The notes under the pieces: generated by a model
Seen by the model: only the letters and a program-made list of their open reading frames with translations
Told to the model about the DNA's origin: nothing
The model's database searches: none
Made by a program: the position numbers and the translations under genes
Source of the DNA: a virus
Lineage: Duplodnaviria > Caudoviricetes
Reading direction: 5' to 3' (one strand)
Length of the DNA: 51,364 bases
IMG/VR virus record: IMGVR_UViG_3300011443_000004
Span: 1-51,364 of that record
Shown: positions 1 through 19,455 of the stretch, piece after piece
How positions within the stretch are numbered: the first letter of the stretch is position 1
Layout of the letters: each line of letters begins with the position of its first letter

Positions 1-123
1 CAGTGTCTGGCATACCGCTATGCCGACAACACGAAGCCCTCGACTGGCGAGAAGAAGGAAAAGGAAGCCGTCTTCAAGCTGAAGGACGAGCTACCTGACG
101 CGCTCCGCTACGCCCTCATGGCG
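1..123. repeat. Terminal direct repeat, left copy (circular-assembly overlap)
   Basis: 1-123 is identical to 51242-51364, and the terminase reading frame continues across the join. Confidence 0.97.
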
Positions 124-345
124 TGGCCCGAACTGCCCGACCCCGATGTCGTGACTCGCACGGACGAGGAACAGGCGCGGTGGGACGGTTACGACGACAA
201 GACGCGCTACGACATCGAGCGCATGGCGGAAATCAAGAAGAAGCGACTGGGCACCAACGTCGAGCTACAGCCGGTGGAAGAGGGATATCCGACCGGCAAT
301 ATCTTCCAGCACGAGGTCGATGACTGGGGCGGGATGAACATCTAA
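1..345 (+). CDS. terL: Terminase large subunit, C-terminal part
   Basis: Frame 1 reads QCLAYRY...KDELPDALRYALMAWPE, with the typical D-x-x-DALRY nuclease-end motif. The ORF-track 118-345 is only its tail. Confidence 0.93.
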   Translation, partial: QCLAYRYADNTKPSTGEKKEKEAVFKLKDELPDALRYALMAWPELPDPDVVTRTDEEQARWDGYDDKTRYDIERMAEIKKKRLGTNVELQPVEEGYPTGNIFQHEVDDWGGMNI

Positions 346-358
346 GGAGGATCGTCAC

Positions 359-760
359 ATGTGGGTCAGTAGACAGGCGTGGCAGAGTTTGCAAGATGCG
401 ATGCAGCGGTTGGTCACAGATGCAGCCTCGCTGCGAAGCGAAGCGTGGCATCGACGGGGTGAGGCAGAGAGACTCGCAGTGGAAAACTCTCGCCTCCGCG
501 CCGACATGGACTGGTTCAAGCTACGGCTGAACCAGGTGGAGCGCGAGCGCGGCCAGTTGATTCAGGCTGCGATTGGCGTGAAGATTGCCGTGCCGGAATT
601 TGTGCCGACCTACGAGGACCCCGGTCAGGCGCTGCAAGAGATACCGGACCTGTCCACCATCGGCGGCGATGCGAAGGACCAGGGTCTGACACAAACGGAA
701 GCGGAATTGGGCGAAGGCGTGGACTACACGCAGATGCCTGGATACAAAGGTAGATACTAA
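359..760 (+). CDS. Hypothetical coiled-coil protein between terL and portal
   Basis: AAGGAGG RBS; stop overlaps the portal start (TAATG). Confidence 0.8.
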   Translation: MWVSRQAWQSLQDAMQRLVTDAASLRSEAWHRRGEAERLAVENSRLRADMDWFKLRLNQVERERGQLIQAAIGVKIAVPEFVPTYEDPGQALQEIPDLSTIGGDAKDQGLTQTEAELGEGVDYTQMPGYKGRY

Positions 761-3162
761 TGGCTGGATTGGCTCTCGAACGCACTGATGAAGTGATTGC
801 GCCGCCCCTTGACGCACTCCCGATGGAGGCTCCTGTGGATGCACTCATCACTGACGAAGAAGCGCTGAAACTCTTCAAGCAGTGCAAGAAGGAGTCCTTC
901 GACAACCGATGGATTTGGGAGCGCGGCTGGATGCGCAACATCCACTACGTGAACAACCGCCATTGGATTGAATACATCCGCCATACGAACGAGTGGCGCG
1001 ATGTGCGGCTGGCGAAGTGGTTCCCCAAGCCGGTCACGAACAAGATGGCTGAAGGCGTGCAGGCGTTGCGCGCGATGTTTGCTGCGGTGAACATCGGCGT
1101 CAACATCCGCCCCAACGGCCGTTCGCCCGAGAACATTGCGGTGGCCGCAGTGTGTGATGACTTGACGCCCCTGCTCCACGAAGAACACGTCATGGACGAG
1201 GTTCTGAACGAAGCGGACTTCTGGTTCGTCACGACGGGCAACGTGTTCCTGCACACCTACCTCGAACGCGATGTCAAACATGGCGTGACGGTGGTGCCGT
1301 ATCAGGAGTGCCTCTCGTGCCAGGGCGTCTACAAGGACACCGACATCGAGGAAGCGGGCGGCGTGTGCCCCCAGTGTCAAGCGCCCGGGCCGTTCCAGCC
1401 GGCGATGGACGAAATGGGCCAGCCGATGGAGGAACAGATTATCAACGGCAAGGGCGTGACGACTGCGCTCTCCCCGTTCGAGCTTGCGTTCCCGATGAAT
1501 TACGCGCGCTTCTCGGACGTGCCGTATGTGATTCGTCTCCGGTGGCGCAACAAGAGCTACTACGAGTTCCACCCGACGCTGGCAGCGCAAACCGCGTCGG
1601 TCAAGTGGGCGAAGGCTCCGAGTGAGCAGGCACTGCAGTTGTTTCGCAGCTTGCCCTATCACAACGACCTCGGCGTAGCCCCTTTCCTTGGTGCGAGTGG
1701 GAGTTCGTCAAATGGTGGAGAAGAAGAAGGCGCAGCGGAATACGAACTGTGGATGCGACCATGCGACCAGTATCCGGATGGCCTTGTGCTGCGGATTCTT
1801 GGTGACACAAATCCTATTGTTCTGCACCTTGAGCAGGATGAAGCGATTCCTGGGCCGCTCCCCTACAAGGACGTAAGCGGCAAGCCGATATTCACGTTCT
1901 CCCATGCGGCCTTCGAGCAGCGTGGCGGGCGCGTCTACGGGACTTCGCCACTCGATGCGGTGATTCAGAAGCAGAACATGCTGAATCAGTTGGACTCGTT
2001 CGTGTTGATGATTGTGAACCGCATGTCGAACCCCCTCTGGCTCGTGCCGAAGGGTGCGGAGATTGAGAAGTTCACCGGAGCGCCGGGGCTCGTGGTCAAG
2101 TGGAACCCGCTCACCGTGGGCGGCAACGCGAAGCCAGAGCGAGTAGATGGGCTGGGACCGAACCAGTCGCTGTTCCAGATACGCGAGCAGCACCTGAAGG
2201 ACATCGAAGAGGGCATGGGCACCTTCGACGTGCTGAAGGGCTCGAAACCACCAGGCGTCGATAGCTTCAGCGGTATGCAGTTGATGGTCGAGCGCGGACA
2301 ATCGCGTTTCGCGTCCTCCTTCAAGGCGCGCGGCCACCTATACCGCGACTGGGTGAAGTTTGCGCTTGAGATTGAGCGCGAATTCGGACCCGAAGAACGC
2401 ACTCGGAACGTGCTGTCGCCCGCTCGCCAGTGGACGCAGCAGCAGTTCAAGAACGCGCAGCTTCAGGGCAGCTTCGACATCATCGTGGAAGATGGTTCGA
2501 CCGCTCCGAAGACGACGCTGGGCACACGGGCGGCTGTCGAGCACCTGAATTCGCTTGGATTCTTGGACCCGGCAGACCCAGACCAGCGCTACAAGGTGCT
2601 GCAGTTGTTCGGACAGGGGCAATTGGCTCCGTCGCTGGACATTCACATGCAGGCGGCACTGAGGAAGCAGCAGGCGTTCGAGGAATGGGCGCAGAACCCG
2701 GAAGCGCAGCAGATGAGCCTGCAGTTGGCGACTGCGGAGACGCAGAAGTTCGAGCAGGAGCTTGCAGCGGTGAAGCCAGAAGAGGAAGCGCCGATGACTG
2801 GGCCTGATGGAGCACCCGCGCCGCTCCCGCAGCTACCGCAGCCGCCGTCTCCGAACAAGTTCACCCCGCTTTCGTGGAAACCGTGGTATAACGCGGCGAT
2901 TCACAAGCAGGAGTTCATGAAATGGGCCAATAGTGACGTGATTATTGACCTATTGAAGCAAAAGCCGGGGCTGGAGGCCCTGTTGACCGCTCATTTGGCC
3001 GAAATGGACATGTCGCTGCAGCAGGCGCAGCTACTGGCGATGGGACCGCAGCCTCCGAAGCCCGGGGGCGGCGGTATTGGAGCCGGCCAGGCCATGAAGA
3101 ACAGCAATAGCGAGTCGGGCGGCGCGCAGAACGCAGAAAACAACCAGGCGAAGCCTCGGTAA
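760..3162 (+). CDS. Portal protein (P22/podovirus-like), with a CxxC...CxxC insertion
   Basis: 800 aa following terL; portal-like motifs (VTNKM, SPFE, YGTSPLDAVIQKQNMLN, SNPLWLVPKG) and a Q/P-rich C-terminus. Confidence 0.88.
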   Translation: MAGLALERTDEVIAPPLDALPMEAPVDALITDEEALKLFKQCKKESFDNRWIWERGWMRNIHYVNNRHWIEYIRHTNEWRDVRLAKWFPKPVTNKMAEGVQALRAMFAAVNIGVNIRPNGRSPENIAVAAVCDDLTPLLHEEHVMDEVLNEADFWFVTTGNVFLHTYLERDVKHGVTVVPYQECLSCQGVYKDTDIEEAGGVCPQCQAPGPFQPAMDEMGQPMEEQIINGKGVTTALSPFELAFPMNYARFSDVPYVIRLRWRNKSYYEFHPTLAAQTASVKWAKAPSEQALQLFRSLPYHNDLGVAPFLGASGSSSNGGEEEGAAEYELWMRPCDQYPDGLVLRILGDTNPIVLHLEQDEAIPGPLPYKDVSGKPIFTFSHAAFEQRGGRVYGTSPLDAVIQKQNMLNQLDSFVLMIVNRMSNPLWLVPKGAEIEKFTGAPGLVVKWNPLTVGGNAKPERVDGLGPNQSLFQIREQHLKDIEEGMGTFDVLKGSKPPGVDSFSGMQLMVERGQSRFASSFKARGHLYRDWVKFALEIEREFGPEERTRNVLSPARQWTQQQFKNAQLQGSFDIIVEDGSTAPKTTLGTRAAVEHLNSLGFLDPADPDQRYKVLQLFGQGQLAPSLDIHMQAALRKQQAFEEWAQNPEAQQMSLQLATAETQKFEQELAAVKPEEEAPMTGPDGAPAPLPQLPQPPSPNKFTPLSWKPWYNAAIHKQEFMKWANSDVIIDLLKQKPGLEALLTAHLAEMDMSLQQAQLLAMGPQPPKPGGGGIGAGQAMKNSNSESGGAQNAENNQAKPR

Positions 3163-3168
3163 AGGGAT

Positions 3169-3198
3169 TGTCCGGAGTTTGTCTACATTCTCCGGACA
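3169..3198 (+). terminator. Hairpin after portal (terminator or operator)
   Basis: TGTCCGGAG...CTCCGGACA inverted repeat followed by GTTCTT. Confidence 0.55.
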
Positions 3199-3202
3199 GT
3201 TC

Positions 3203-3231
3203 TTGCACAAATCGTGCCATCGCGGTATGAT
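3203..3231 (+). promoter_or_regulatory. sigma70-like promoter of the scaffold/capsid operon
   Basis: TTGCAC-N17-TATGAT. Confidence 0.6.
3204..3219 (-). promoter_or_regulatory. sigma54-type -24/-12 site, antisense
   Basis: Minus strand TGGCACGATTTGTGCA. Confidence 0.65.
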
Positions 3232-3251
3232 TATTAGGCAAGCAATTCGTA

Positions 3252-3267
3252 TGCACATTTCGTGCCA
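3252..3267 (-). promoter_or_regulatory. sigma54-type -24/-12 site, antisense
   Basis: Minus strand TGGCACGAAATGTGCA. Confidence 0.65.
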
Positions 3268-3310
3268 ATTTCCAGCGTGGAACCAGACCACGTAAAAAAG
3301 GGTTGAATCA

Positions 3311-4180
3311 ATGGCTGACCAAGACGGCGTCATAACGAGTCCAGATGCAGGGGCACCTGGCACAGGCGGAAGCAACACACCAAACACCGGCAACGCCCCT
3401 GGCGGCGCACAGCCAGTAGCCGAAAAGACGTTCTCCTTCAAGGAGGACCGAAGTGATTGGGTGCCACGCACTCGCTTGAATGAGGTAAGCGGTAAGCTCA
3501 CCACCTACGAGAAGGAAAACCTCACGCTCAAGCAGCAACTGGAGCTTGCGGAGAACCGGACTCGCGCCCTCGTTGGCGTGAACCCCGTGGACCCGAAGCA
3601 GCAGTCGCAGCAAGAGATGCGTGCGGCTATCGAGGAACTCGTTCCTGAAATCAAGGCCCTGCAGGGATTCTCTGCGGAGCAGCTACAGGAAGTGCTCGAA
3701 GCCGCGAAGCAGGCGCAAGCCGCCGCACGTCAGTCCTCCAATCGGCACGCGGAAACGATGCTGAACGAGATTGATGCGGAAGCCACGCGCTCACTGGGCG
3801 TCGAGAAGCTCACGAGCAATCAGCAGAAGCAGTTGTATCGAGCCTACCGCGAAGCAGCGATTGAAGCTGCCGGCGCTCGACCGTTCATCGAAGGCACACG
3901 GGACCGTCACGACCCCACGGGTCAGGACTTCCTCAGCCGTCATGAGCGCGGCGACAAGACACTGGTGAAGGAGTTCGTGAAGCAATACCTTGCGGAGTGG
4001 TATGAGCCCGCGCGAAGGTCAGTCACGGCATCGCAGGCGAACCGGAACCTCCGACCCGTTCCTCGTGGGGAACGCGCACGGAGTCTCCCGGCAGGCGCAG
4101 GCGGCGCTAAAGTCGATTTGAACAACAAGGAAGACTTCAAGAAAGCCATCCTCGCAGCACGCGGGGCGGGCCAAGAGTAA
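3311..4180 (+). CDS. Capsid scaffolding protein
   Basis: Lies between portal and capsid; disordered N-terminus; VPRTRLNEV motif followed by coiled coil. Confidence 0.75.
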   Translation: MADQDGVITSPDAGAPGTGGSNTPNTGNAPGGAQPVAEKTFSFKEDRSDWVPRTRLNEVSGKLTTYEKENLTLKQQLELAENRTRALVGVNPVDPKQQSQQEMRAAIEELVPEIKALQGFSAEQLQEVLEAAKQAQAAARQSSNRHAETMLNEIDAEATRSLGVEKLTSNQQKQLYRAYREAAIEAAGARPFIEGTRDRHDPTGQDFLSRHERGDKTLVKEFVKQYLAEWYEPARRSVTASQANRNLRPVPRGERARSLPAGAGGAKVDLNNKEDFKKAILAARGAGQE

Positions 4181-4198
4181 GTCAAGTAGGAGCATCAC

Positions 4199-5509
4199 AT
4201 GGCAGGCGTAGATACCACAGTTCTCTCCGGTCTGGAGAAGGACGTATTCGAGAAGGGCGTCAGCGAAGGCGTCAACAACAGCTTCCCGCTCAAGGAGTTC
4301 TTCGAGCCGGAACTGACGGACGCTGACTACGTTGGCGGCGGCGGGCACATCTGGTCGCATCACGTTGGGCGGAACACCAGCCCGATGTTCACGCGCGAGG
4401 GTGCGGCGTTCGCATCTGCTGGCGCACAGCGGCACATCAAGGGGCGCATCGACATCCGCAAGATGATGGCGCGGCTCTACATGACGGCCGAAGCGATGGA
4501 GTTCTACCAGCGGTCTGAGGCGTCGTATGCGAATGCGATGTCCGACGAGAAGACCCGCTTGGTTGACGACATTGCGTTCCGCGAAGAGTATGCCCTGTCG
4601 GCTGACGGGCGCGGCGTTCTCGCTCTCTTGAGCGACGACCCGGGCACCACGACCGACGTTGACGTGGACTCACCCGCGAACATCCCGGGCACGAGCTTCG
4701 GCAACCGCTTCATCCAGAAGGGTATGTTCGTTGGGGCTGTCAACCCGGCGACCGGCTCTCTGCGTGCGGGCATCGCCCAGGTTGCGGAAGTCAACCAGGA
4801 CGGTTCCGACTTCACGGCTGCGGGCGCGATTGACGCGGCGTGGGCGGACAACGACTACATCGTGCAGGCGGCGAATGCCTCTGTCACGAGCGTGCTCGAC
4901 ACCAGCTACGAAGCGGCCTTCTGGGGCCTCCCGGCGCTGATTGACGACGGCACGAACCGCGACAACTACTTCGGCATCACGCGCACGGACGCTCCGTCGC
5001 TGAAGTCGTATGTGGTGAGCAACGCTGGAGCCTTCTCGCTCGACCTCGCGCAGCGCACGGCTGACGTGGTCAACCAGAAGCTCGGTGGAGAGATTGATAC
5101 GCTCGTGATGCATCACTCGGTGCGCCGCGAATACATCAAGCTGCTCAACGCGGACAGACGCTACAGCGGGAACAACCTGCAGAACCCCAACGGCGGAACC
5201 GTTGCGATGAAGCAGGGCGACCTCACGCTGGGTGAATGCACCGTGAAGGCGATTCGCTCGGTCGGCCTGGCTCAGGTCTACTTCCTCGATACGAAGCGCA
5301 GCGGATTCAAGCGCTACATCGCGGAAGCGGGCAAGTTCGAGGACCGCGACGGCAGCATCTGGCAGCGCGACGGCAGCGGAACATCTGCTCGCCATGCGTT
5401 TGAAGCCTGGTGGTATTCGTGGAAGCAGAACTTCTGCACGAACCCCGGATTCAATGCCCGGTGGGACGGTGTGACCGGCCAGACGTTGGTCGTTGTTCGC
5501 GCCGAGTAA
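4199..5509 (+). CDS. Major capsid protein (HK97 fold, P22 coat-like)
   Basis: 436 aa with strong codon bias, follows the scaffold gene; capsid-like motifs (GLPALIDDGT, YFGITRT, VYFLDT); followed by a terminator. Confidence 0.85.
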   Translation: MAGVDTTVLSGLEKDVFEKGVSEGVNNSFPLKEFFEPELTDADYVGGGGHIWSHHVGRNTSPMFTREGAAFASAGAQRHIKGRIDIRKMMARLYMTAEAMEFYQRSEASYANAMSDEKTRLVDDIAFREEYALSADGRGVLALLSDDPGTTTDVDVDSPANIPGTSFGNRFIQKGMFVGAVNPATGSLRAGIAQVAEVNQDGSDFTAAGAIDAAWADNDYIVQAANASVTSVLDTSYEAAFWGLPALIDDGTNRDNYFGITRTDAPSLKSYVVSNAGAFSLDLAQRTADVVNQKLGGEIDTLVMHHSVRREYIKLLNADRRYSGNNLQNPNGGTVAMKQGDLTLGECTVKAIRSVGLAQVYFLDTKRSGFKRYIAEAGKFEDRDGSIWQRDGSGTSARHAFEAWWYSWKQNFCTNPGFNARWDGVTGQTLVVVRAE

Positions 5510-5521
5510 GTAGCAACAGGT

Positions 5522-5552
5522 GGGGAGGGGCAATGTGCCTCTCCCCCTTGTT
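5522..5552 (+). terminator. Intrinsic terminator after capsid
   Basis: GGGGAGGGGC-aatgt-GCCTCTCCCC then CTTGTT. Confidence 0.65.
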
Positions 5553-5610
5553 CAGTATCGGCGGGTGTTCATCAATGGTGAACAGCCTCGAACACTGAAC
5601 AGAGGGACCT

Positions 5611-5757
5611 ATGCCGCAAGAGAAAGCTCCGGAGAAGAAGAAGGACAATCCTACGGCATTCGACTTTGCAAAGGAGTTCGTGACCGGCGTCTACGGTGAG
5701 AAGAAAGAGAAGAAACACTTGCAGGCTCCAAATCAAGTTACCGGACCAAGAGGGTAA
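5611..5757 (+). CDS. Small Lys/Glu-rich hypothetical protein (48 aa)
   Basis: GAGGG RBS; MPQEKAPEKKKDNPTAFDFAKEF...; below the ORF-track cutoff. Confidence 0.55.
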   Translation: MPQEKAPEKKKDNPTAFDFAKEFVTGVYGEKKEKKHLQAPNQVTGPRG

Positions 5758-5783
5758 CACAAGCCTTAGGAGGGCTACGTAAC

Positions 5784-6212
5784 ATGGGTGTATTTCAACA
5801 GATGGTCGAAGTCGTCAACCGCACGAGCAAGACGCTCAACCTGCGCTTCGACGGGCAGGACATGGAGCTTGTTCCCAACTACACGCCGGAAGGTGAGCCC
5901 ATCAATCCCGGGGGCAACATGATTCCCGTGCAGACGGTGGGACACGCGAAGTCGCAGAACGTGCTGATGGGCAGCGAAGACCCCCAGAACCCCAGTGAGT
6001 ATGTGGTGCTGGTCGGGCTCAGAGCCAAGCCGGGGCAGAAGCAGCGCGACGACATCACGCACCTGGAGCAGTCGAACGAGCTTACGCGCGTCAAGCTCGA
6101 AGAGTATCTGGACGACCCGACGCAGAAAATCATCGTCGCCGGCCGGCGTATCTCCAGGGGAGAGGCCCGACCTGTGAAGGACATCGCTCCGTTTGACCCA
6201 CGGCAGAGCTAA
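5784..6212 (+). CDS. Hypothetical head-associated protein
   Basis: AGGAGG RBS; coupled to the next gene. Confidence 0.75.
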   Translation: MGVFQQMVEVVNRTSKTLNLRFDGQDMELVPNYTPEGEPINPGGNMIPVQTVGHAKSQNVLMGSEDPQNPSEYVVLVGLRAKPGQKQRDDITHLEQSNELTRVKLEEYLDDPTQKIIVAGRRISRGEARPVKDIAPFDPRQS

Positions 6213-6784
6213 TGGCTACTACCAACTGGGTTGCGGATACGAACAAGTGGAAGCTGCCGGAACCGCCCGAATGGTTCCTCAAGCGGCTGTTCGACTTCGA
6301 CCCGATGCTCGTGCTCGTGCCGAGTCGGGTCAAGGCGAAGGGGTCCACGCCAGCATACCTACTGACCCGTCGCCGGCAGCATTCGGCTGGGCTCGGTGAC
6401 GTAGCGATGCTCGACAACAAGCATCCGGACACGAACATGTGTTACGCCCTCGGCGTCGTGCCGATTGCGCCACTACGGTTCAACCGGAACGTGAACACGT
6501 TCACGGAAGCGGCGTGCCAGTCTCTGATAGCGGACCTGAAAGCTCGGGACGTGTGGGCAGTGACGGGCGGGCCAACGGGCAACGCGGACAAGCTCGTAGA
6601 CATCATCGAAGCGCAGGAAGAAGCAGTCAAGGTCGCGGAGCGCAAGTCGCTCAAGGACCGCTTCTACCACATGGGACGAGACGCCTATCGGTCGTTGAAG
6701 GCGCGCACGGGACAACGCAACAAGCGGGCGAGTGACTTTCACGGAGTCGCGCCTACACCTGGTGGGAAGATAATCCTACCGTAA
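6212..6784 (+). CDS. Hypothetical protein
   Basis: TAATG coupling; phage-like codon use. Confidence 0.75.
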   Translation: MATTNWVADTNKWKLPEPPEWFLKRLFDFDPMLVLVPSRVKAKGSTPAYLLTRRRQHSAGLGDVAMLDNKHPDTNMCYALGVVPIAPLRFNRNVNTFTEAACQSLIADLKARDVWAVTGGPTGNADKLVDIIEAQEEAVKVAERKSLKDRFYHMGRDAYRSLKARTGQRNKRASDFHGVAPTPGGKIILP

Positions 6785-6847
6785 CCTCTGGATGGTTGGA
6801 GCGGGGAGCACGGCAGTGCCGTTACCGATTCCAGCGAGGATAGTATC

Positions 6848-7351
6848 ATGGCTCTTTCTCTTGTGAATGCCAACCTTGTGTGGCAGGAAGTCAAAATCGC
6901 GTTCGGTGGTGAGTCCGGCGCTGGCACGGGAACCCCGAAGCTGCTTCAGGAACAGTTCCTGGCGTTGAAGGCGCACCTTGCGCAGGTCAAGAAGAACCCC
7001 GACCTGCAGATTGTTCGCATTCAGGGCGGGTCGATTGACGACGCCTCTGGTCAGATTCTGGCGGACACGCCTTGCAAGCTCTACGGCGTCTACCTCAAGA
7101 AGGCTGCGACGGGCACCGACGTGTTCACGCAAATCATCGACGACGCCACGGACGACTCCTTGGCGGCTGTCACGTCCATCGTCGCCGTTCTCCCGCTGAC
7201 CCAGTCGAGCGAGCAGGTTGCCCTGTTCTACCCGAATGGCCTGGCGATGAGCACGGGCGTTGTGGCGAAAGCCTACAACGAGTTCGACGGTGTCACCGAC
7301 TCTTCGGCGTCGGATACGCCTGACGGCTTCATCATCATCGGCGCTGCGTAA
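6848..7351 (+). CDS. Putative virion structural/decoration protein
   Basis: Strong codon bias, beta-rich, GAGG RBS, downstream terminator. Confidence 0.65.
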   Translation: MALSLVNANLVWQEVKIAFGGESGAGTGTPKLLQEQFLALKAHLAQVKKNPDLQIVRIQGGSIDDASGQILADTPCKLYGVYLKKAATGTDVFTQIIDDATDDSLAAVTSIVAVLPLTQSSEQVALFYPNGLAMSTGVVAKAYNEFDGVTDSSASDTPDGFIIIGAA

Positions 7352-7366
7352 GCAACGCTGTAACTG

Positions 7367-7398
7367 TGGGGAGTGGGCTGGGGCCTGCTCCCCCTTTT
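7367..7398 (+). terminator. Intrinsic terminator
   Basis: GGGGAGTGGG...CCTGCTCCCC then CTTTT. Confidence 0.65.
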
Positions 7399-7425
7399 CA
7401 TCTTTCTGGAAAGGTTTCCCCATTC

Positions 7426-7971
7426 ATGGCTACCAAGTATATCGAGAGACAGGCGACCGGCGAAGCGAACATCGGCGGGCACCTGAAGGGCGATTCGGCC
7501 GGCAACGTCGCGGCGTTCATCGTGGACGCTGATGACGAACGGGTAAAGTATTGGGACCGCACGGCGGGCCTCGTGCGAGTGCTCGAAGGCGGCGTGGCGC
7601 GCACCATCACCCCGACTGCAGCCTACGTCCTGACGGCGGACGAGTCTGGCTCGGTCGTGTTCCTCAATGCGTCGGCTGGCTTCCAGATTACGTTGCCGGC
7701 GAAGGCAGCGGGTCTGCGATTCAAGTTCGTCGTCGGTGCGGCATTCGCCACCACGGACTTCACCATCGTGGTGCCTGTGGCGAACGACAACACCATTCAG
7801 GGTTACGCGAACGTGGCGAATGTCTCCACGCCAGCGTCAGGTGAAGCGACCATCAGTTTCGTGGCGACCGCAGAGACGGTTGGCGACTGGGTCGAGGTTA
7901 TCAACGACGGCACCAACTGGATTGCCAGTGGTGAGGGTCAGGTAGCATCGTCCATTACGTTCACCACGTAA
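7426..7971 (+). CDS. Putative head fibre/decoration protein
   Basis: LTADESGSVVFLNA..ITLPA..GLRFKF and GDWVEV..DGTNW fibre-like motifs; start set at MATKY. Confidence 0.65.
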   Translation: MATKYIERQATGEANIGGHLKGDSAGNVAAFIVDADDERVKYWDRTAGLVRVLEGGVARTITPTAAYVLTADESGSVVFLNASAGFQITLPAKAAGLRFKFVVGAAFATTDFTIVVPVANDNTIQGYANVANVSTPASGEATISFVATAETVGDWVEVINDGTNWIASGEGQVASSITFTT

Positions 7972-7994
7972 TCGGCTACTTCATCGAAGCTCAC

Positions 7995-8031
7995 AAGGCG
8001 GGGCGGGCTACACGCTCGTCTCGCCTTTTTT
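7995..8031 (+). terminator. Intrinsic terminator
   Basis: AGGCGGGCGGGC...GCTCGTCTCGCCT then a T run. Confidence 0.75.
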
Positions 8032-8042
8032 CGTGTAGAGGC

Positions 8043-8645
8043 ATGATGCACACTGTGCAAGTGTTCGGGGGAGCGCCGAGTAACAACCCGGTGCCAGTGC
8101 AGGGCGATGCGGAGCGGTGGGGACTGAATAACCTTGCCTGCGATAAGCGTATCGCTGCGCGCTTCCGTGGCGCGACCCGCTGGTTCGACCTCCACTCGTC
8201 TGAGCATATACAGGCGCGGAGGCTCAACGCCTACCCGTGGCTGTGCCGGCAGACGATTCCGGTCTACCGCTGGGCCATCGACGCGCAGATGCCCATGAGC
8301 ACGGTGTATCCGCTCGGGGCTGTCGCTACGGTATTCCCCGGCTGTCGCATCTTCACGAGTACTCTCGACTGGATGCTCGCTGCAGCAATCGTGCTGGAGC
8401 CCAAGCGCATCGAACTCTTTGGGTGGCGTATGCACCACCCGCAATACCGCCATCAGGTCACGAGCGGCCAGTGGTGGGTGAACCAGGCACTCTCTCGGGG
8501 TATTGAAGTCGTCAACTACAGCCGCAGTGCGCTGGTGATGACCTACAACCCCACGCTTCCGACTCCACTGGTGCTCCCGACCCATCTGATGTATGGTCTG
8601 GAAACCACAGACCGCAGCAAGTTGTATCACGCAGTTTCACGATAG
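8043..8645 (+). CDS. Putative glycosyltransferase-like protein (sialyltransferase-like/DUF115-like fold)
   Basis: VFGGAPS..WGLN..RWFDLH..FTSTLDWMLAAAI..IELFG pattern. Confidence 0.5.
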   Translation: MMHTVQVFGGAPSNNPVPVQGDAERWGLNNLACDKRIAARFRGATRWFDLHSSEHIQARRLNAYPWLCRQTIPVYRWAIDAQMPMSTVYPLGAVATVFPGCRIFTSTLDWMLAAAIVLEPKRIELFGWRMHHPQYRHQVTSGQWWVNQALSRGIEVVNYSRSALVMTYNPTLPTPLVLPTHLMYGLETTDRSKLYHAVSR

Positions 8646-8656
8646 AGGACACAGAC

Positions 8657-9073
8657 ATGGACGGCTACACCCACTACCGCAATCACTTCACCAACAAGCA
8701 CGGGCAGCTTCAGGTGCTCGCGGCGACCGACGACACGACGCTCATCACGCCGAAGACGACGAGTCACCAGATATTCCTGCAGAAGCTCTACATCAGCATC
8801 ACCACGTATGCCGCGCAGACCTGGACGTTTCAGGACAGCACGGGCACGCCGGTTCCCAACGGCCTCATCTCGATACCTGGTGCGGCTGTGGCGCTCAACA
8901 GCGAGTCGAGCACCATCGTGATTGACTTCGGGCCAGAGGGCTACGCGATTCCTGTTGGCAAGAACCTCGTGCTGAACGTCAGTGCGGCGGGTGCGGCCGG
9001 CGTGATTGTGTGGGACGCCTACGAGAAGCTCGGGGCGGTCATCAACTACTTGTCGGGCGCAAGCAACCAGTAA
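8657..9073 (+). CDS. Putative structural protein
   Basis: Beta-rich, T/A/G-rich; GAGGA RBS. Confidence 0.6.
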   Translation: MDGYTHYRNHFTNKHGQLQVLAATDDTTLITPKTTSHQIFLQKLYISITTYAAQTWTFQDSTGTPVPNGLISIPGAAVALNSESSTIVIDFGPEGYAIPVGKNLVLNVSAAGAAGVIVWDAYEKLGAVINYLSGASNQ

Positions 9074-9082
9074 GGGGCACAC

Positions 9083-9352
9083 ATGGCGGCACCGAAGTTT
9101 ATGAACCAGCCGCTGGACAGAGACTACGACATTGGGGGCGCGAGAGCGCTCCCGATTCGTGTTATCTCGAAGAGTCGGGTGGTGATGGAGATATCGGCGG
9201 ACGCTGTGGCGAATACCCCAGACGTTGCCGAAGACCCTTCCGGAACGGCACGCGGATACTTCTTCCGTGTCTCCGGGGGCAAGGAACAGTTCTGCGTGAG
9301 ATTCAGGTCGGGCGCGATTCAGATACTCGCTACGGAACCAACGGAGCCATAA
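9083..9352 (+). CDS. Hypothetical protein
   Basis: Operon context. Confidence 0.65.
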   Translation: MAAPKFMNQPLDRDYDIGGARALPIRVISKSRVVMEISADAVANTPDVAEDPSGTARGYFFRVSGGKEQFCVRFRSGAIQILATEPTEP

Positions 9353-9353
9353 C

Positions 9354-9590
9354 ATGAGATTGCGATGTCCGCACTGCGATACAGACTACGCGGCCTCCCA
9401 CTGTGGGGTGCCCGCGCTCAAGCCAGAGCAGTCTGCGCAAATCACGGTGCTCTGCATCGTGTGTAAGAAGGGCTTCGATGTCACAGCCACACCGACTCCT
9501 GCAGAAGTGCCCTCGTGGTTTCAGCGAGTGGTGCGCCGCAAGCAGGGTAAGCCGGCAGGGCTGTCCGTTGTGTCCAGTAAGAGGGAGTAA
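9354..9590 (+). CDS. Small zinc-ribbon protein
   Basis: CPHC...CIVC; GGAG RBS. Confidence 0.6.
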   Translation: MRLRCPHCDTDYAASHCGVPALKPEQSAQITVLCIVCKKGFDVTATPTPAEVPSWFQRVVRRKQGKPAGLSVVSSKRE

Positions 9591-9593
9591 CCA

Positions 9594-10454
9594 ATGGCAC
9601 TCAGAATGTGGGGGCAGACCATCATCCAGGCCGCAACGCCGGGTGAAGACCCAGTGGTCTTGGGGACGCTCTGGGTGGATACCACGGGGACTCCTACCCT
9701 AAAGGTCTGCACGGGGCTCGCGCCGTATACGTTTGCGGCGATATCAGGCGGGAGCGTCGGACTCGATGACCTGACTGATGTGGTTATTACGAGTGCTGCG
9801 ACCGGCGACTACCTGCGGTTCAACGGCACCAACTGGGTCGATGTGGCGAGCGGTCAAATCGTGACCGACATCAATGCCGCGCTCGACCACGGGACACTGC
9901 TCGGGCTCTCCGATGACGACCACTCGATATACCTGCTCGCGTCAGGCGCGACTGACCGGGCGACGTTTGCGGCGGGATGGACGGACCTGACCGATGCAGG
10001 CGCGACGACACTACACAAGCACGACCACGGCGGGCAGGACGGACTTGCGGACGACGACCACACGCAGTATGCGCTGCTCACGGGGCGCGGTGGACAGGAG
10101 CTACTCGATACGGAGCTTCGGGACCACTCGGAGACGCAGACGACGGGCACCATCAGCACGAACACACTGGCGGTAGACTACACGGACGGTGCGGTGTTCG
10201 CGGTTGCGCTCAACGCGAATATCACGACGTTCACCATTGCGAACCCGCCTGCGAGCGGCGAGCACTGCGCGGTGACGTTCGTGTTTACCGCAGACGGCAC
10301 TATTCGCACCATCACCTGGCCGACTGGCACGGTGTGGCCGGCAGGCACTGCGCCGACGATGACGGGGACTAACAACAAGCGGGACATCATCACCCTCATG
10401 ACGTATGACGGGGGCACGGTGTGGTTCGGCATGATAGTGGGGCAGAACTACTAA
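9594..10454 (+). CDS. Tail fibre-like protein
   Basis: LDDLTDVVIT, FNGTNW, two GLxDDDHxxY repeats, and a C-terminal ITWP..VWPAGTAPT..DIITL..DGGTVW module. Confidence 0.8.
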   Translation: MALRMWGQTIIQAATPGEDPVVLGTLWVDTTGTPTLKVCTGLAPYTFAAISGGSVGLDDLTDVVITSAATGDYLRFNGTNWVDVASGQIVTDINAALDHGTLLGLSDDDHSIYLLASGATDRATFAAGWTDLTDAGATTLHKHDHGGQDGLADDDHTQYALLTGRGGQELLDTELRDHSETQTTGTISTNTLAVDYTDGAVFAVALNANITTFTIANPPASGEHCAVTFVFTADGTIRTITWPTGTVWPAGTAPTMTGTNNKRDIITLMTYDGGTVWFGMIVGQNY

Positions 10455-10669
10455 TGGCTGGAAGAGAAGCGGCGCGGCCACCTGAGGAAATCCCGGTGGT
10501 CGAGACAGAGGTCCCCAGTCGTCCGAACGAGCAGTTCCAGATGGCGATGGTGGATGCATCGGAGTATCGGGCCTGGCTCGATAGAGCGACAGCGGCCGGA
10601 TGGGAAGTGGAGTGCCAGCACCACGCTGGTTCCTCCCTCTTCATGGTCATCAAGAAACAGGTGGTCTAA
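10454..10669 (+). CDS. Small hypothetical protein
   Basis: TAATG-coupled on both sides. Confidence 0.6.
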   Translation: MAGREAARPPEEIPVVETEVPSRPNEQFQMAMVDASEYRAWLDRATAAGWEVECQHHAGSSLFMVIKKQVV

Positions 10670-12069
10670 TGCTCGCGCGCACACACGGGTTCATCCATCG
10701 AGTAGCGGCGGCGACAGGGCTGGTGTTCGTTGGGGGCACATCCGTAGGTGGAGACGGCGATGACTATACCTCCGTCTCGCTCACTTCCCTTACGGGTGGG
10801 ATAGCTTCGGCTCCAGCAGCCGGGGATATCGTCGTGGTGGTGCATGGCTGGTGTTCGGCGTCTGATGATAACCCGACGATTAGTGGCTATACCGAAGTAA
10901 CGGAACTCTACGCCAATGACGACCGCGATACCAACGTGGTGGTTGCGTATAAGGTGATGACCGGCACCCCGGATACGGCCATTACAGTGCCAAATACCGC
11001 GACTGGCGATAACGCGCAGGCGACAGTGGTGCATGTGTGGCGTTCTCAAAACGCCGCGCCGATTGATGTAGCCATAGCCACAGCAACAGGCACCAATTCG
11101 GACGTTCCCAATGCGCCAACCGTCACACCCATCACGACGGGGGCGGTCATTCTCGCATGTGCGTTGTCTGCGCAACAGGAAGCAAACGCGGCGCTCACCG
11201 TGCCCTCTGGCTATGGCAACTTCTTTGCCGGGCTTGGAGAGTCCGGCACAACCGAACGGCAAGCCCGCGCAGTGATTGCCTCGAAAGCCTGGACAGGTGG
11301 TGCGGAAGACCCACCCGTGTTCGGGGGAGGCTCGGCGGAAGTGAGAGCGTCATGGGGCGCGGTATCGGTGGTCTTGCGGCCCTCTTCATCCTCGGGGTTG
11401 GTGTTCGTTGGAGGCACCACTGCCGGGGGGAGAGGCGATACCTACACGTCGGTATCGCTCACGTCACTCACTGGAGGTATTGCCGCCGCGCCTGGACCTG
11501 GTGATGTCGTTATCGTGGTGCATGGCTGCATCGGCACGAGCGACGTAGACCCGTCAGTCAGCGGCTACACGGAACTGACGGAGCTATACGCCAATGATGA
11601 CGTGGACGCGAACGTGGCGGTTGCCTGGAAGATTATGGGACCGACCCCGGATACATCGGTCACGGTGTTTCAGGACGGCACTAGCTCGAACGGGCACGCG
11701 ACAGCGATACACGTCTGGCGCGGGGCTCACCAGACTACGCCGTTCAACGTAACGACTACGACGGCTACCGGCACGAACTCGGACAAGCCGGACTCACCGA
11801 CTATCACCCCGACGACGGCAGGGTCGATGGTGCTCTCGGTAGGGCTCGGAGCGCAGGACGACACCATAGCGGCCACACTGGTCGCGCCGACTGGCTACAC
11901 CGACAACGACTTCGTATCGAAGGGCGACGGGAGCACGCGGAGCGCGATAGCGGTTATCGCCTCGAAGGCGTGGGTGTCCGGCGCGGAAGACCCTGGCGCG
12001 TGGACTGGTGGAGAGGTTGATACTAGCAACTCGTGGGTAGCGGCGACACTCGTGCTGCAGCCCGCATAA
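10669..12069 (+). CDS. Tail/receptor-binding protein with two tandem ~225 aa homologous domains
   Basis: GLVFVGGT..YTSVSLTSLTGGIA..ELYANDD..VIASKAW..AEDP occurs twice. Confidence 0.75.
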   Translation: MLARTHGFIHRVAAATGLVFVGGTSVGGDGDDYTSVSLTSLTGGIASAPAAGDIVVVVHGWCSASDDNPTISGYTEVTELYANDDRDTNVVVAYKVMTGTPDTAITVPNTATGDNAQATVVHVWRSQNAAPIDVAIATATGTNSDVPNAPTVTPITTGAVILACALSAQQEANAALTVPSGYGNFFAGLGESGTTERQARAVIASKAWTGGAEDPPVFGGGSAEVRASWGAVSVVLRPSSSSGLVFVGGTTAGGRGDTYTSVSLTSLTGGIAAAPGPGDVVIVVHGCIGTSDVDPSVSGYTELTELYANDDVDANVAVAWKIMGPTPDTSVTVFQDGTSSNGHATAIHVWRGAHQTTPFNVTTTTATGTNSDKPDSPTITPTTAGSMVLSVGLGAQDDTIAATLVAPTGYTDNDFVSKGDGSTRSAIAVIASKAWVSGAEDPGAWTGGEVDTSNSWVAATLVLQPA

Positions 12070-12078
12070 AGGATACCG

Positions 12079-12792
12079 ATGGCGACACTACTTTCAGCAA
12101 TCGAGTCGCAGGCGCGCGAGCACCTGAATGAGGATACCGCCAGCTTCTGGACGAGCGCAGAGCTTATCCAGATTATCAACAACGGTATCAAAGACCTGTG
12201 GGGGATGATTCTGGACCTGAACCAGGAGCACTTCCTCACCATCGACGTGACCAATGTGAGCCTCGCGGTGAATTCCTCGACGCTCACTGGGGTGCCTGCG
12301 GATGTGTTCCGCGTGCATCTGATTGAGCCGCTGACGACCACTCCAGGGGCTACTGGCGCAGGCGTGTTGTTCGAGCCGGCTGACTACAACAGTCACAAGT
12401 TCATCAACGCGCGTCAGGCGACAGCGCAGGACCCCAGCGGCGGGCTGAAGGTCTACTACACGCTGAGTCAGGCGGGTGCGCCCGTGGGTGCGCCAACCGT
12501 GCATGTGGCTCCGCAGCTATCGACAGCGCTGAACCCGTTGCGGTTCGTGTATGTGCCGACGCTCGCTGCGGTGGCGGCGAACGCGAACAACCCGATACCG
12601 GGTGAGAGCGATAATGCGCTGATAGCCTACTGCGTGGCGTTCGCGCGAGCCAAGGAGCGGGAGACGGCCGACGCGGACCCGACCTGGCTGAACGTCTACA
12701 AGACGGAGAAGACTAACCTCGCGGTTCGGCTCACTCCACGTCAGACGCAAGAGCCGGAAGTAGTCGAAGACCTCTACGGTGCGTATCTCTAA
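12079..12792 (+). CDS. Head-tail adaptor / tail tubular protein A-like
   Basis: N-terminal ..REHLNED..FWTSAELIQIINNG motif typical of adaptors; position. Confidence 0.7.
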   Translation: MATLLSAIESQAREHLNEDTASFWTSAELIQIINNGIKDLWGMILDLNQEHFLTIDVTNVSLAVNSSTLTGVPADVFRVHLIEPLTTTPGATGAGVLFEPADYNSHKFINARQATAQDPSGGLKVYYTLSQAGAPVGAPTVHVAPQLSTALNPLRFVYVPTLAAVAANANNPIPGESDNALIAYCVAFARAKERETADADPTWLNVYKTEKTNLAVRLTPRQTQEPEVVEDLYGAYL

Positions 12793-12801
12793 AGGAGTCG
12801 T

Positions 12802-13020
12802 ATGCCTGCTACTATCCAGAAGCGCGTGTTTGCGCGTGTTGTGGAAGCAGGGAACCTCGAACCAGCAATCGCGGAAGTGACCAGTGAGGTTAATGCTTTC
12901 CTCAGCACTTTTGCTCTCGCTAGTCGTGTATTAGATGTCCGGATGCACACGGGACCGGCGTCGAAATACGGAGAGCGTTCGGTTCACATTGTTACGGTAT
13001 TCTACCTAGAGGTCACATAA
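12802..13020 (+). CDS. Hypothetical protein
   Basis: AAGGAG RBS. Confidence 0.65.
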   Translation: MPATIQKRVFARVVEAGNLEPAIAEVTSEVNAFLSTFALASRVLDVRMHTGPASKYGERSVHIVTVFYLEVT

Positions 13021-13021
13021 C

Positions 13022-13408
13022 ATGAGTCTGTTCACAGGAAGTATCAGAGAGATTGGTGACGCGCGAGCGTTAGACGTTGCAGTAGTTGATGGGCTCGGCG
13101 CACAGCTAACGGGATTCGACCCGTCGCGTCCCGCTAATGCCGGCATCACCACTGTCTCTGTAGACAACACGGTCGGGGGAACCTCGCTGCTCGTAGCGAA
13201 CCCGGCTCGTCGTCAATTCATCGTGCATAACGACAGCGCGGGCACCATCTTCGTTGCGCTCGCGGCAACAGCTTCGGCTACCGCCTTCACCTACGAAGTC
13301 GCTGGCAACAGCACCATCGAGGGGCCACTCAATGGCTACACGGGTGCAATATCGGCGTTTCGAGTGTCGGGTGTGAGCGCGGTTCGGGTGACGGAAGTCA
13401 CGACCTAA
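13022..13408 (+). CDS. Putative structural protein
   Basis: ANPARRQFIVHN beta-sandwich-like motif. Confidence 0.6.
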   Translation: MSLFTGSIREIGDARALDVAVVDGLGAQLTGFDPSRPANAGITTVSVDNTVGGTSLLVANPARRQFIVHNDSAGTIFVALAATASATAFTYEVAGNSTIEGPLNGYTGAISAFRVSGVSAVRVTEVTT

Positions 13409-13420
13409 ACAGGAGCAGAC

Positions 13421-14752
13421 ATGGCTGCAGGCAAGATTCGGAACTTCGGCTTCGGCGTAGACGGTGTGAACATCGTCACGGACCCGCTCAAGCTCAAGCC
13501 ATCAGAGGGTATCTCGCTCCAGAATGCGGAACTGGTGCCCAATGAGGCGACAGGCGGGCTCAGTGCGCTCACGCAGCGCAAGGGGCTCGATGCGTTGAAC
13601 GGGTCAGCGATGTCGGGGAGTGTCATCGGCATATACAACTGGCCGCTGCGCACCACCATCGTCAAGACGCTGTATGCAGCGAAGCAGACGGAGGACGCGA
13701 ACACGTTCCAGAGCACCATCGACGGCACGACCTGGGTGCCTACTTCGACGCCGGTAGCGCCAGTGACGGATGCTTACTTCGCGGATAACTCGAACGTGCA
13801 GTCGGCGCGACGATTCGCCGGCTTCAAGAACCTGTTGATATACCCGGGCGGGACCTACACGCAGGATTCCGCGAACCCGACCATTCAGTCGTGGAACGGG
13901 ACCGATGCGTTCACGGTGACGGCGATTCCGGTGGGGCCTGGCGATAGCTCGGACGAACCCTTCGTCATCGTTGACCAGTTGACGATTGGCGACAAGACGT
14001 ATCTGGCGGTGAGCGACCCGGGCGGCGGCGCAGCACCAGACCACGCAGGGCGCGTGCTGCAGCTAGACATGACCACGGGCAAGCTGCGGCAGGTAGCGAG
14101 CACGTTCGGCAACGACTCGGGCCAGATGGGCGGGGGCACCCCGTGCTGCATGGCTTACTACCAGAATCAGCTATTCGTCGGGCTCAATGGTAGCGCCACG
14201 ACCAATGGCATCGGCAAGATTGTGCGATGCTTCCCTGACGTGGACGAGACGTGGACGGTAGATGTCTCGAACCTGGTCAGTCACCCCGTGACGCTCATCG
14301 CGGAGGGCGGCGGGATGCTCGTGGGGACGCGCAGCAGTGCGACGACCGGCGCGCAGGTTTACTTCCGCTCCAACTCGGCGTTGACGTGGGGCTCGGAGCT
14401 AACCAGTGGCGGCGGCGCAGCGGGCAGCGGCCACTACCAGGGGCTCGTGTCCTACAACGGCGAAGTGTATTGCGTGGAATACCACTCCACGACGCCTATC
14501 ATCAACATCAAGAAGCGCACGGCGCTCGGCGTGTGGTCTACCGTTCGTGACGTAGCCACGACTGACAGTGGCGTGGCCGGCAACCTGCCTGGCAACGGCA
14601 TCGTGTTCAACAGCAAGTTGTTCTTCACCTTCCGGTCACTGACGGCAGGCGGCAACGACGGCTTCATCTTGCAGTGTGCGACCTCGACGTGGACGAAGGT
14701 GCTCACCGATAACATCGGCGGGTCGATGGCGATACTGACGCAGCGGAGCTAA
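13421..14752 (+). CDS. Tail protein, beta-propeller-like
   Basis: N-terminus resembles a tail-hub (P22 gp10-like) start; propeller-like repeats. Confidence 0.6.
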   Translation: MAAGKIRNFGFGVDGVNIVTDPLKLKPSEGISLQNAELVPNEATGGLSALTQRKGLDALNGSAMSGSVIGIYNWPLRTTIVKTLYAAKQTEDANTFQSTIDGTTWVPTSTPVAPVTDAYFADNSNVQSARRFAGFKNLLIYPGGTYTQDSANPTIQSWNGTDAFTVTAIPVGPGDSSDEPFVIVDQLTIGDKTYLAVSDPGGGAAPDHAGRVLQLDMTTGKLRQVASTFGNDSGQMGGGTPCCMAYYQNQLFVGLNGSATTNGIGKIVRCFPDVDETWTVDVSNLVSHPVTLIAEGGGMLVGTRSSATTGAQVYFRSNSALTWGSELTSGGGAAGSGHYQGLVSYNGEVYCVEYHSTTPIINIKKRTALGVWSTVRDVATTDSGVAGNLPGNGIVFNSKLFFTFRSLTAGGNDGFILQCATSTWTKVLTDNIGGSMAILTQRS

Positions 14753-14753
14753 C

Positions 14754-16376: not shown

Positions 16377-16377
16377 C

Positions 16378-17355
16378 GTGGCGAATGACATCTTCGACAA
16401 ACCGTTCTCACTCGTCGGGGACGCGACCCCGGAGAAGATGTATCAGATTGATGCGATGTTCGAGGACATCTATCGGCGCTTGGCCTCGACGCAGCAGACG
16501 GTCGTGCAGGCGTTTCCGGAAGGACAGCCTGTTGACGTGACGCGATGGAAGACGGGTCCGTGGACGTATGATGGCATCGTGCCGTCTGCGCGCGTGGCCC
16601 GCCTCGTCCACAACCTGGCGGCGGCGACGGAGTATGCGGACTTCGCGCCGGAAGGCATCGACACCTGCGTCGAGATAGCCGTGACTCCGCTCGGAGCCGG
16701 CGCGTCCATCAGCGGTATCCGCCACTTCGGGCAGATATCGCGCAAAATCTGCATCGTGAACGCCAGCGGCACCGAGTCGCTGACGATTCCGCATGAGGAA
16801 GCGACTTCGACAGACATCTACCGCTTCAATCTCCCCGACAGCACCGACATTGTGCTCGCACCCTACCAGGTGCTGTGGGCGAGCTACAACCCGGAGCTTC
16901 ACCGCTGGCAGTTGATGGTGACGCCGCATTCGTCGGGCGGGCTCTCGGGCGGGGGCGGGGTTGCACTCTACGCTTCGCGGACCTTCTTGGAGGCTGAACT
17001 GGAGGCCATGACGGGGGCGACGTTCTGCGAGGTCATCCCTGCGATAGCGAATACCTGTATCGTCCCCCTCGATGTGGTGTGGGACAACGATGTGACAGAC
17101 GCCTACACCAACGCGCCGACGTGGGTGGTGCATCGAAACGGCGGGGGCGGAAACGGGTTGATAACCCCGCTGTCACTGACCTACAGCACCGGCCCGCGTC
17201 GTCAGGTGTATCGGTCGGCTATGGTGGCTGGCTCAGACCCTTTGGCCGACTTTTCTGGGACAAATGTAGGCTGCACCCTTGCGGCTGCACTCACCGGGGT
17301 CGGCGCGGCTACGACCACTGTCCACATCTGGTATGGGACTTTTAGCACGGTATAA
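16378..17355 (+). CDS. Putative tail protein
   Basis: GGAGG plus GTG start directly after the tail-hub gene. Confidence 0.6.
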   Translation: MANDIFDKPFSLVGDATPEKMYQIDAMFEDIYRRLASTQQTVVQAFPEGQPVDVTRWKTGPWTYDGIVPSARVARLVHNLAAATEYADFAPEGIDTCVEIAVTPLGAGASISGIRHFGQISRKICIVNASGTESLTIPHEEATSTDIYRFNLPDSTDIVLAPYQVLWASYNPELHRWQLMVTPHSSGGLSGGGGVALYASRTFLEAELEAMTGATFCEVIPAIANTCIVPLDVVWDNDVTDAYTNAPTWVVHRNGGGGNGLITPLSLTYSTGPRRQVYRSAMVAGSDPLADFSGTNVGCTLAAALTGVGAATTTVHIWYGTFSTV

Positions 17356-17370: not shown

Positions 17371-17401
17371 AATAGGGTAAAATAGAAGGGGAGTTTACAC
17401 A

Positions 17402-19454: not shown

Positions 19455-19455
19455 C

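Follow-up and report, generated by a model that had tools for sequence, protein, structure and literature searches.

The window analyzed here was the whole 51,364 nucleotide (nt) virus record IMGVR_UViG_3300011443_000004 (Duplodnaviria; Caudoviricetes), and the element in question was the short region at positions 3203-3267 in the spacer between the portal and scaffold genes. On the plus strand of this phage, a putative small terminase gene (terS; 48943) opens a series that continues with the large terminase, portal, scaffold, capsid, and virion genes and reaches approximately 27 kilobases (kb); the minus strand from approximately 44.8 kb down to 27.1 kb encodes proteins including a DNA polymerase, a helicase/primase-like protein, and an ERCC4 nuclease. 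Within the portal-scaffold spacer, the following features were identified:

3170-3197, plus strand: hairpin GTCCGGAG-N12-CTCCGGAC, closely following the TAA (3160-3162) that ends the portal gene; it resembles a weak terminator and is not conserved among relatives.
3203-3208 and 3226-3231, plus strand: sigma70-type promoter-like pair TTGCAC-N17-TATGAT before the scaffold/capsid operon, with a predicted start near 3238.
3219-3204, minus strand: sigma54-type site 1, TGGCACGATTTGTGCA, with GG at 3218-3217, GC at 3206-3205, and a predicted minus-strand start near 3193.
3267-3252, minus strand: sigma54-type site 2, TGGCACGAAATGTGCA, with a predicted minus-strand start near 3241, approximately 3 nt from the predicted plus-strand start.
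3276-3292, plus strand: leader hairpin CGTGG-N7-CCACG, upstream of the scaffold gene's ribosome site (AAGGG) and ATG (3311).

Site 1 spans approximately -34 to -19 of the plus-strand promoter, with its -12 TGCA box inside the -35 hexamer and its -24 GGCAC box in the promoter spacer, and site 2 would lie at approximately +15 to +30 of the plus-strand transcript. On this layout, 3203-3267 is a candidate doubly coded control region of the scaffold/capsid operon. An original prediction made from the letters of the window had proposed such an overlap here, at terS, and at 17354, and all of its boxes and coordinates at the three loci were exact to the base.

The spacer was compared among 12 distinct members of the close clade (the window, L001-L004, L036, L043, L065, L072, L081, L083, and L087), leaving out the duplicates L038, L054, and L044 (equal to L001, L003, and L043, respectively), contigs that did not reach the spacer (L037, L039-L042, and L045) or covered only 10 nt of it (L046), and L047 (61% identity, with no leader hairpin seen). 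Site 1 was present in 12/12 members with GCA and TGCC invariant, T-[T/A]GCA likewise invariant, and the 5-6 nt between the boxes varying freely; fixed boxes with free bases between them are the signature of a two-box element with fixed spacing. The T preceding TGCA, which is the first T of the plus-strand -35 TTG and reads as an A after TGCA on the minus strand, was also kept in 12/12. The -10 hexamer 6-8 bases further on retained A at position 2 and T at position 6 in all 12 members and matched at least 4/6 positions in 11 of them, its letters differing among relatives (TATGAT, TATTCT, TATACT, TAATAT, CATACT, TACACT, GATAAT, TATCAT, and others). The distance from TTGCAx to the -10 box was 17 nt in three members, 18 nt in five, and 19 nt in four, and a TGn extension was found in four relatives, all with 18-19 nt spacers. 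Because the boxes are kept while the spacer and the -10 letters vary, the minus-strand sigma54-type and the plus-strand sigma70-type readings are both under selection on the same DNA. Loss of the orientation in relatives had been set beforehand as a refuting test, and the orientation was kept in 12/12 relatives at the capsid operon and 6/6 at terS. The predicted register at the capsid proved flexible, with a spacing of 17-19 nt among relatives and a second register readable in L083 and possibly L065.

The existence of a real plus-strand promoter is favoured by the placement of a transfer RNA (tRNA) gene, by the conserved leader hairpin, and by the corresponding spacer of a distant clade. In L087, a plus-strand tRNA-Thr gene begins 11 nt after the -10 box. 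The distant clade carried TTGAC[ATG], nearly always TTGACA, at 9/18 loci and a minus-strand sigma54-like site at 2/18, one of which (L012) displayed the full composite TTGCAT-17-TAATCT; the count leaves out the duplicates L016 and L024 as well as L010 and L018, whose spacer was not found. The plus-strand promoter at the capsid spacer is therefore probably old, and the picture suggested is that of an old sigma70-type promoter onto which the clade of the window may have written a backward sigma54 site, weakening the -35 to TTGCA and improving the -10. In a sigma70-type promoter, a TTGACA-like -35 lies 17 +/- 1 nt upstream of the -10; TTGCAx matches this hexamer at only 3-4/6 positions. A generic sigma70 scan returned six matches versus 4.1 +/- 2.2 expected, which is no enrichment alone, and 3204-3231 was the only plus-strand match in 1-20000. 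A plus-strand sigma54 site at 3187-3207 (CCGGAC-N5-TTGCA) was rejected for a spacing one base short. Ten thin contigs identical or near-identical to the phage were found in one metatranscriptome (X3), matching the portal, scaffold, capsid, and downstream genes in part; 3163-3310 lies outside all of them, they carry no strand or end information, and they have no bearing either way on the promoters.

The leader hairpin was paired in 90/90 cells across 18 sequences from both clades, with compensatory changes in 2/5 pairs and a score reached by 0/500 shuffles; its role could be in stabilisation, processing, or protein binding. Its form among relatives L001-L022 was CGYGG-N6/7-CCRCG with one pair being C-G, U-A, or G-C, and two copies are present in some distant relatives. 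The portal-scaffold spacer of relatives also contains inserted plus-strand tRNA genes (Thr, His) at L087 279-354, L003 4701-4857, and L065 13-89, located either immediately before site 1 or in the interval from the -10 box to site 2.

The sigma54 consensus is TGGCACG-N4-TTGCW, with GG and GC dinucleotides at fixed spacing, and sites 3204, 3252, 17355, and 48898 match 11, 11, 12, and 11 of its 12 specified positions, respectively. The pattern TGGCAC-N7-GC had 11 matches in the window, 11/11 on the minus strand, compared to 4.1 +/- 2.0 in shuffles, of which 0/100 reached 11. The looser GGCAC-N7-GC was equal to the control in relatives and was replaced by a stricter score that fixed GG and GC and required at least 10/12 consensus matches. 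This score identified 17 sites in the window (15 minus, 2 plus) versus 4.8 +/- 2.3 expected, with a maximum of 9 in 40 shuffles; most of them face the sense direction ahead of DNA-metabolism genes. Two related complete genomes with 65-78% nucleotide identity to the window even in conserved genes contained 10 sites (9 minus) versus 3.75 +/- 1.9 expected (G002) and 11 sites (9 minus) versus 5.1 +/- 2.3 expected (G001), the latter being the weakest case as one shuffle reached 12. Three distant-clade genomes (approximately 50% capsid identity) contained 4, 3, and 5 sites; as these counts equal the shuffle level, sigma54-type sites are a trait of the window's own clade. A pyrimidine (Y), at a position outside the selection, preceded TGGCA[CT] in 9/10 window sites, and the window sites resemble the RpoN motifs from chromatin immunoprecipitation (ChIP) mapping as printed in PMC7657599 and PMC4591121.

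Six sites in the window were placed in the sense direction of a downstream gene:

37142-37157, minus strand: sense sigma54-type site TGGCACGGCTTATGCA, located in the spacer upstream of gene 36153-37094 and preceding an AGGAGG and an ATG.
29458-29473, minus strand: sense sigma54-type site closely preceding a same-strand ribosome site and start codon.
39924-39939, minus strand: sense sigma54-type site, likewise closely preceding a same-strand ribosome site and start codon.
44852-44867, minus strand: sense sigma54-type site, again closely preceding a same-strand ribosome site and start codon.
45029-45044, minus strand: sense sigma54-type site in the same upstream spacer as 44852-44867.
23061-23076, plus strand: sense sigma54-type site TGGCATGGGGTTTGCA, 38 nt before the ATG of the exonuclease gene 23115-24248; the only good plus-strand site.

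The upstream site of gene 36153-37094 was kept before its homologues in G001 and G002 (3/3 complete genomes including the window). The exonuclease gene opens a plus-strand nucleotide-metabolism block, and since the single good plus-strand site precedes this block, the motif tracks gene class and not strand. No -10 box was present behind the minus-strand sense spacer sites (0/5), and the base after the -12 TGC[AT] box in the six sense sites was G, G, C, C, T, and T. Elsewhere in the genome the motif thus appears, from its placement, to behave as a directional promoter. The idea that sigma54 drives early genes stood in part: sense sites do precede DNA-metabolism genes on both strands, but the genes served belong to replication and nucleotide metabolism and are more likely middle than early. 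Three GTGCAA repeats with a 10-base-pair (bp) period lie at 44971-44996 on the minus strand, approximately 105-130 nt upstream of 44852-44867 in an enhancer-like position and just downstream of 45029-45044; TGCAC/TTGCAC words are scattered over 44880-45140, and a sigma70-like CTGACA-N16-TAGACT pair is found near 45135-45107.

The arrangement seen at the capsid operon was also identified at two other loci ahead of plus-strand genes:

48897-48902 and 48920-48925, plus strand: promoter-like pair TTGCAT-N17-CAGAAT before the putative small terminase gene (GTG 48943).
48913-48898, minus strand: sigma54-type site TGGCACGGATTATGCA, with an ATG at 48886, 11 nt after the -12 box and at the predicted start.
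17354-17359 and 17378-17383, plus strand: promoter-like pair AAGCAA-N18-TAAAAT within the virion module, ahead of gene 17402-18178.
17370-17355, minus strand: sigma54-type site TGGCACGTTTCTTGCT, matching 12/12 consensus positions and the best match in the genome.

The core elements overlap physically at all three loci (3204-3219 in 3203-3231, 17355-17370 in 17354-17383, and 48898-48913 in 48897-48925), and the sigma54-type sites span approximately -35 to -19 of their plus-strand promoters. A composite was defined as a loose sigma54 core and, 3-9 nt beyond it, a -10-like hexamer that has A at position 2, T at position 6, and at least 4/6 matches; four were found on the plus strand (3203, 17354, 48897, and the intragenic 44276) and none on the minus strand, compared to 0.45 per strand in shuffles; 0/300 shuffles reached four on the plus strand and 2/300 reached three. 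The claim that a minus-strand sigma54-type site overlaps a plus-strand sigma70-type promoter therefore holds, with the same register at two unrelated spacers and a frequency above chance in shuffles.

At terS, the sigma54-type site was present in 6/6 relatives, and the register of TTGCAx-N17/18 followed by a -10 box was found in 4/6 spacers; in the other two, the -10-like hexamer abuts GTGCCA. In 3/3 complete genomes, 11-12 nt separate the -12 box from a minus-strand ATG (window 48884-48886, G001 7918-7920, and G002 2657-2659), and the site is by these positions a predicted divergent promoter for a minus-strand gene. As a sigma54 start is expected approximately 12 nt past the GC, where this ATG lies, the message would be leaderless or near-leaderless. 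The divergent-gene proteins of G001 and G002 are homologous to each other, and the 59 amino acid open reading frame (ORF) of the window is different and cysteine-rich. The site at 17355 recurred in one of the two other complete genomes: G002 carries a same-orientation site (22952) 14 nt before the homologous gene with TATAAT upstream and not downstream of it, a geometry equal to that of window site 2 (approximately +14 to +30 of the plus-strand start, with opposed starts approximately 3-4 nt apart), while G001 has a 13 nt spacer and no counterpart. These results modify the original prediction at both loci. Its TGCA shared with the -35 box holds at the capsid and in four of the six terS spacers; the terS site, described as antisense, faces a minus-strand gene and is hence divergent; and 17354, described as the weaker case, was misjudged as to its sigma54 site, only its -35 (AAGCAA, a poor match) being weak. 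The sites at the capsid (12/12) and terS (6/6) were conserved, and conservation at 17354 was limited to one of two other genomes with a different geometry.

From this architecture, its statistics, and its conservation, polymerase binding, start sites, exclusion, and timing are predicted as follows. The clade of the window would use the host sigma54 polymerase for its DNA-metabolism genes, and on the plus strand a sigma70-type promoter would start, near 3238, a transcript with the conserved leader hairpin. A sigma54 closed complex covers approximately -34 to -5 of its promoter and a sigma70 open complex approximately -55 to +20. The sigma54 holoenzyme is predicted to cover approximately 3198-3227 on site 1 and 3246-3275 on site 2, and the sigma70 complex to need approximately 3183-3258; because these predicted footprints on 3183-3275 overlap, occupancy by the two polymerases would be mutually exclusive. 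The structural operons would be held down by the sigma54 polymerase while the sigma54 programme runs, via either a silent closed complex or backward firing across the late promoter, and the backward orientation would ensure that an activator firing the sense sites cannot switch on the structural genes early. Release may come from titration of scarce sigma54 by the replicated genomes. In PMC4591121, the sigma54 holoenzyme is described as binding in an inactive state and as repressing where its site overlaps another promoter. Competition by the sigma54 polymerase at the structural-gene promoters, keeping their output low, is put forward here tentatively as the best reading, plausible but somewhat short of probable.

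Several observations weigh against repression by the sigma54 polymerase. Both promoters are predicted from sequence, and rpoN in the host of the phage is assumed. Sigma54 promoters depend on an AAA+ enhancer-binding activator, which usually acts from an upstream enhancer. A search for the Sigma54_activat domain, with a positive control in 14/14 genomes, identified none in the phage proteins, which also lack a GAFTGA motif, and upstream of the sense sites no common 8-mer, as for a shared enhancer, was found beyond that explained by overlapping regions. Some overlap is expected without selection because the spacers are short (46-148 nt), and at terS it is nearly unavoidable given only approximately 47-56 nt between divergent genes. 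The geometry varies, with 19 nt promoter spacing in 4/12 relatives and another register in 2/6 terS spacers and, at the capsid, in L083 (possibly L065). Site 2 was present in 7/12 relatives and absent from 5/12, and its right half GCCAA was kept in 9/12, including three of the five without the -12 box, so that another constraint also acts on it; its role is partly supported. Read purely as an RNA hairpin (GCAC-N5-GTGC), site 2 has counterparts in relatives without the sigma54 boxes as shifted-register stems, although 3-4 bp are too weak to decide. Plus-strand sigma54-type sites aimed at the capsid genes were found in 3/12 relatives (L036 215-230, L065 109-124, and L087 228-243), where they adjoin the minus-strand site or share with it a palindromic TTGCAA -12 box as a convergent pair, and sigma54 might drive the late genes in these phages instead of blocking them. 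Lastly, E. coli sigma54 bound inside genes was no roadblock (PMC4591121).

One alternative is that the backward sites are ordinary working sigma54 promoters whose RNA or leftward transcription matters, and not occupancy of the late promoter; they could supply antisense RNA against portal read-through, a small RNA, or genome-wide leftward transcription. The sites are among the best consensus matches of the genome (11-12/12) and all point one way, like promoters in phages with transcription-pulled DNA entry, and in the three close genomes the minus strand accounts for 15/17, 9/11, and 9/10 of the sites with at least 10/12 matches. At terS the site clearly has a minus-strand gene to serve, and mutations of antisense RpoN sites in Yersinia altered sense-gene expression (PMC7657599). 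Sites 3204, 3252, and 17355, however, have no minus-strand gene downstream, and the transcript from site 1 would have no conserved product, entering the portal 3' end, a hairpin, or tRNA genes in relatives, while its predicted start in the window falls inside an arm of the hairpin 3170-3197. Working promoters also leave the conserved -10 box and the same register at unrelated spacers unexplained. This alternative is partly compatible with repression by the sigma54 polymerase, as interference would be its sub-case, but taken for itself it is unlikely.

A second alternative holds that there is no functional coupling, the overlap having arisen incidentally from compaction and from the similarity of TTGCA to TTGACA, either through tight packing (spacers of 46, 56, and 148 nt) or as the remnant of a two-way or palindromic sigma54 promoter. 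Imperfect plus-strand versions in L072 and L083 bring the relatives with TGGCA upstream on the plus strand to 5/12, three of them properly spaced and all inverted around TTGCAA, and the minus-strand site of the window could thus be the surviving half of a two-way element, which counts against repression; the lack of a universal register fits the same view. Packing and ancestry do not account for the persistence of the minus-strand site in 12/12 and 6/6 relatives at 65-78% nucleotide identity in conserved genes, for its survival where the plus-strand partner decays, or for a composite count above all 300 shuffles, which makes the absence of any coupling doubtful. Finally, a phage or host DNA-binding protein other than sigma54, acting as activator or repressor at both gene classes on two TGCA/TGCC-like boxes 11 bp apart, would suit a phage with many genes without known function, no activator found, sigma54 use deduced from sequence, and inverted symmetry in some relatives, but is very improbable given a consensus match extending to unselected positions such as the Y before TGG, the exact spacing, start codons at the predicted start, and the asymmetric, directional sense sites.

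Opposed promoters serve as switches in several phages, such as lambda paQ antisense to Q, the face-to-face pR/pL of coliphages 186 and P2, and P22 sar. These share with the proposed repression by the sigma54 polymerase a promoter directed against a lytic or late function that lowers its expression through interference or antisense RNA, under temporal or developmental control; they differ in using sigma70 promoters and phage regulators, whereas the enhancer-dependent sigma54 class would be able to repress while silent. Phages are otherwise known to time their genes by their own polymerases, sigma factors, anti-sigma factors, and activators. A literature search at the level of titles and abstract openings returned no phage with its own sigma54-class promoters and none with sigma54 as a built-in late-gene repressor.

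In bacteria, E. coli glmY has "perfectly overlapping" sigma54 and sigma70 promoters (Reichenbach et al., 2009, as cited in PMC4591121). The phage arrangement resembles such pairs in that the core elements lie on the same DNA, one holoenzyme can be accommodated at a time, and sigma54 may be bound without transcribing. It differs in that the two promoters face opposite ways, so that sigma54 never expresses the overlapped gene, and in its phage setting, likely temporal purpose, several operons, and second site in the leader. Antisense RpoN sites mapped by ChIP sequencing in E. coli and Yersinia pseudotuberculosis (PMC4591121; PMC7657599) similarly have high-scoring -24/-12 motifs directed against a neighbouring gene, and mutated intergenic RpoN sites of Y. 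pseudotuberculosis gave both positive and negative effects (PMC7657599). The bacterial sites are scattered and mostly of unknown use, whereas those of the phage coincide precisely with structural-operon core promoters and persist in diverged relatives. The phage arrangement differs from both kinds of system in its combination of the bacterial overlapping-pair and the phage opposed-promoter designs, opposite facing and repeated at several operons in a phage.

If the repression reading is true, it would reveal a new and very economical timing circuit and provide a compact natural system for studying how the two bacterial holoenzyme families compete. The -24 GG (3217-3218) lies in the sigma70 spacer and can be changed without touching the sigma70 boxes, and sigma54-type motifs offer a possible host clue when annotating uncultivated phages. 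In its widest form, a soil/sediment phage clade would use the host sigma54 polymerase both to drive its replication and nucleotide genes and to repress its late genes without a phage regulator, with genome copies titrating sigma54 and so coupling late transcription to replication; as a whole this scheme is speculative and improbable.

No Sigma70_r2 or Sigma54_DBD domain was identified in the phage proteins. The large terminase scored above the Pfam cut-off and the portal marginally below it, and the capsid displayed only remote matches to GenBank phages (22-32% identity), among them Arthrobacter-phage capsids. Among GenBank phages there was no nucleotide match to the window, and no cultured relative or host turned up; distant relatives (45-49% capsid identity) were found on contigs binned with Polyangiaceae, Vicinamibacterales, and Acidobacteriota genomes. 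The record was classed as 100% complete and carries an exact terminal direct repeat of 123 bp (positions 1-123 and 51242-51364). The large-terminase frame from 49982 is still open at the window end, and the window ends may be an assembly overlap of a circular or permuted map instead of true genome ends.

Gene 14754-16376, upstream of 17402-18178, matches an internal virion protein family, and no relatives of gene 17402-18178 were found in the viral collection. The window is without a tRNA gene and had no Rfam family match. The plus-strand block at 23.1-26.5 kb is non-structural, encoding the exonuclease, a dATP/dGTP diphosphohydrolase-like domain, and a 5'-nucleotidase. Within it, the genes at 25103-26493 have two domains hinting at nucleotide-pool remodelling, one the N-terminal domain of a dATP/dGTP diphosphohydrolase and the other a deoxy-5'-nucleotidase domain; a Z-genome, prompted by the MazZ-like domain, was dropped as a candidate since no adenylosuccinate-synthetase-like (PurZ) gene was found. 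A G+C-rich hairpin at 5512-5548 (GGGGAGGGG...CCTCTCCCC) directly follows the capsid stop codon and precedes a lysine-rich ORF of 48 codons (5612-5757).

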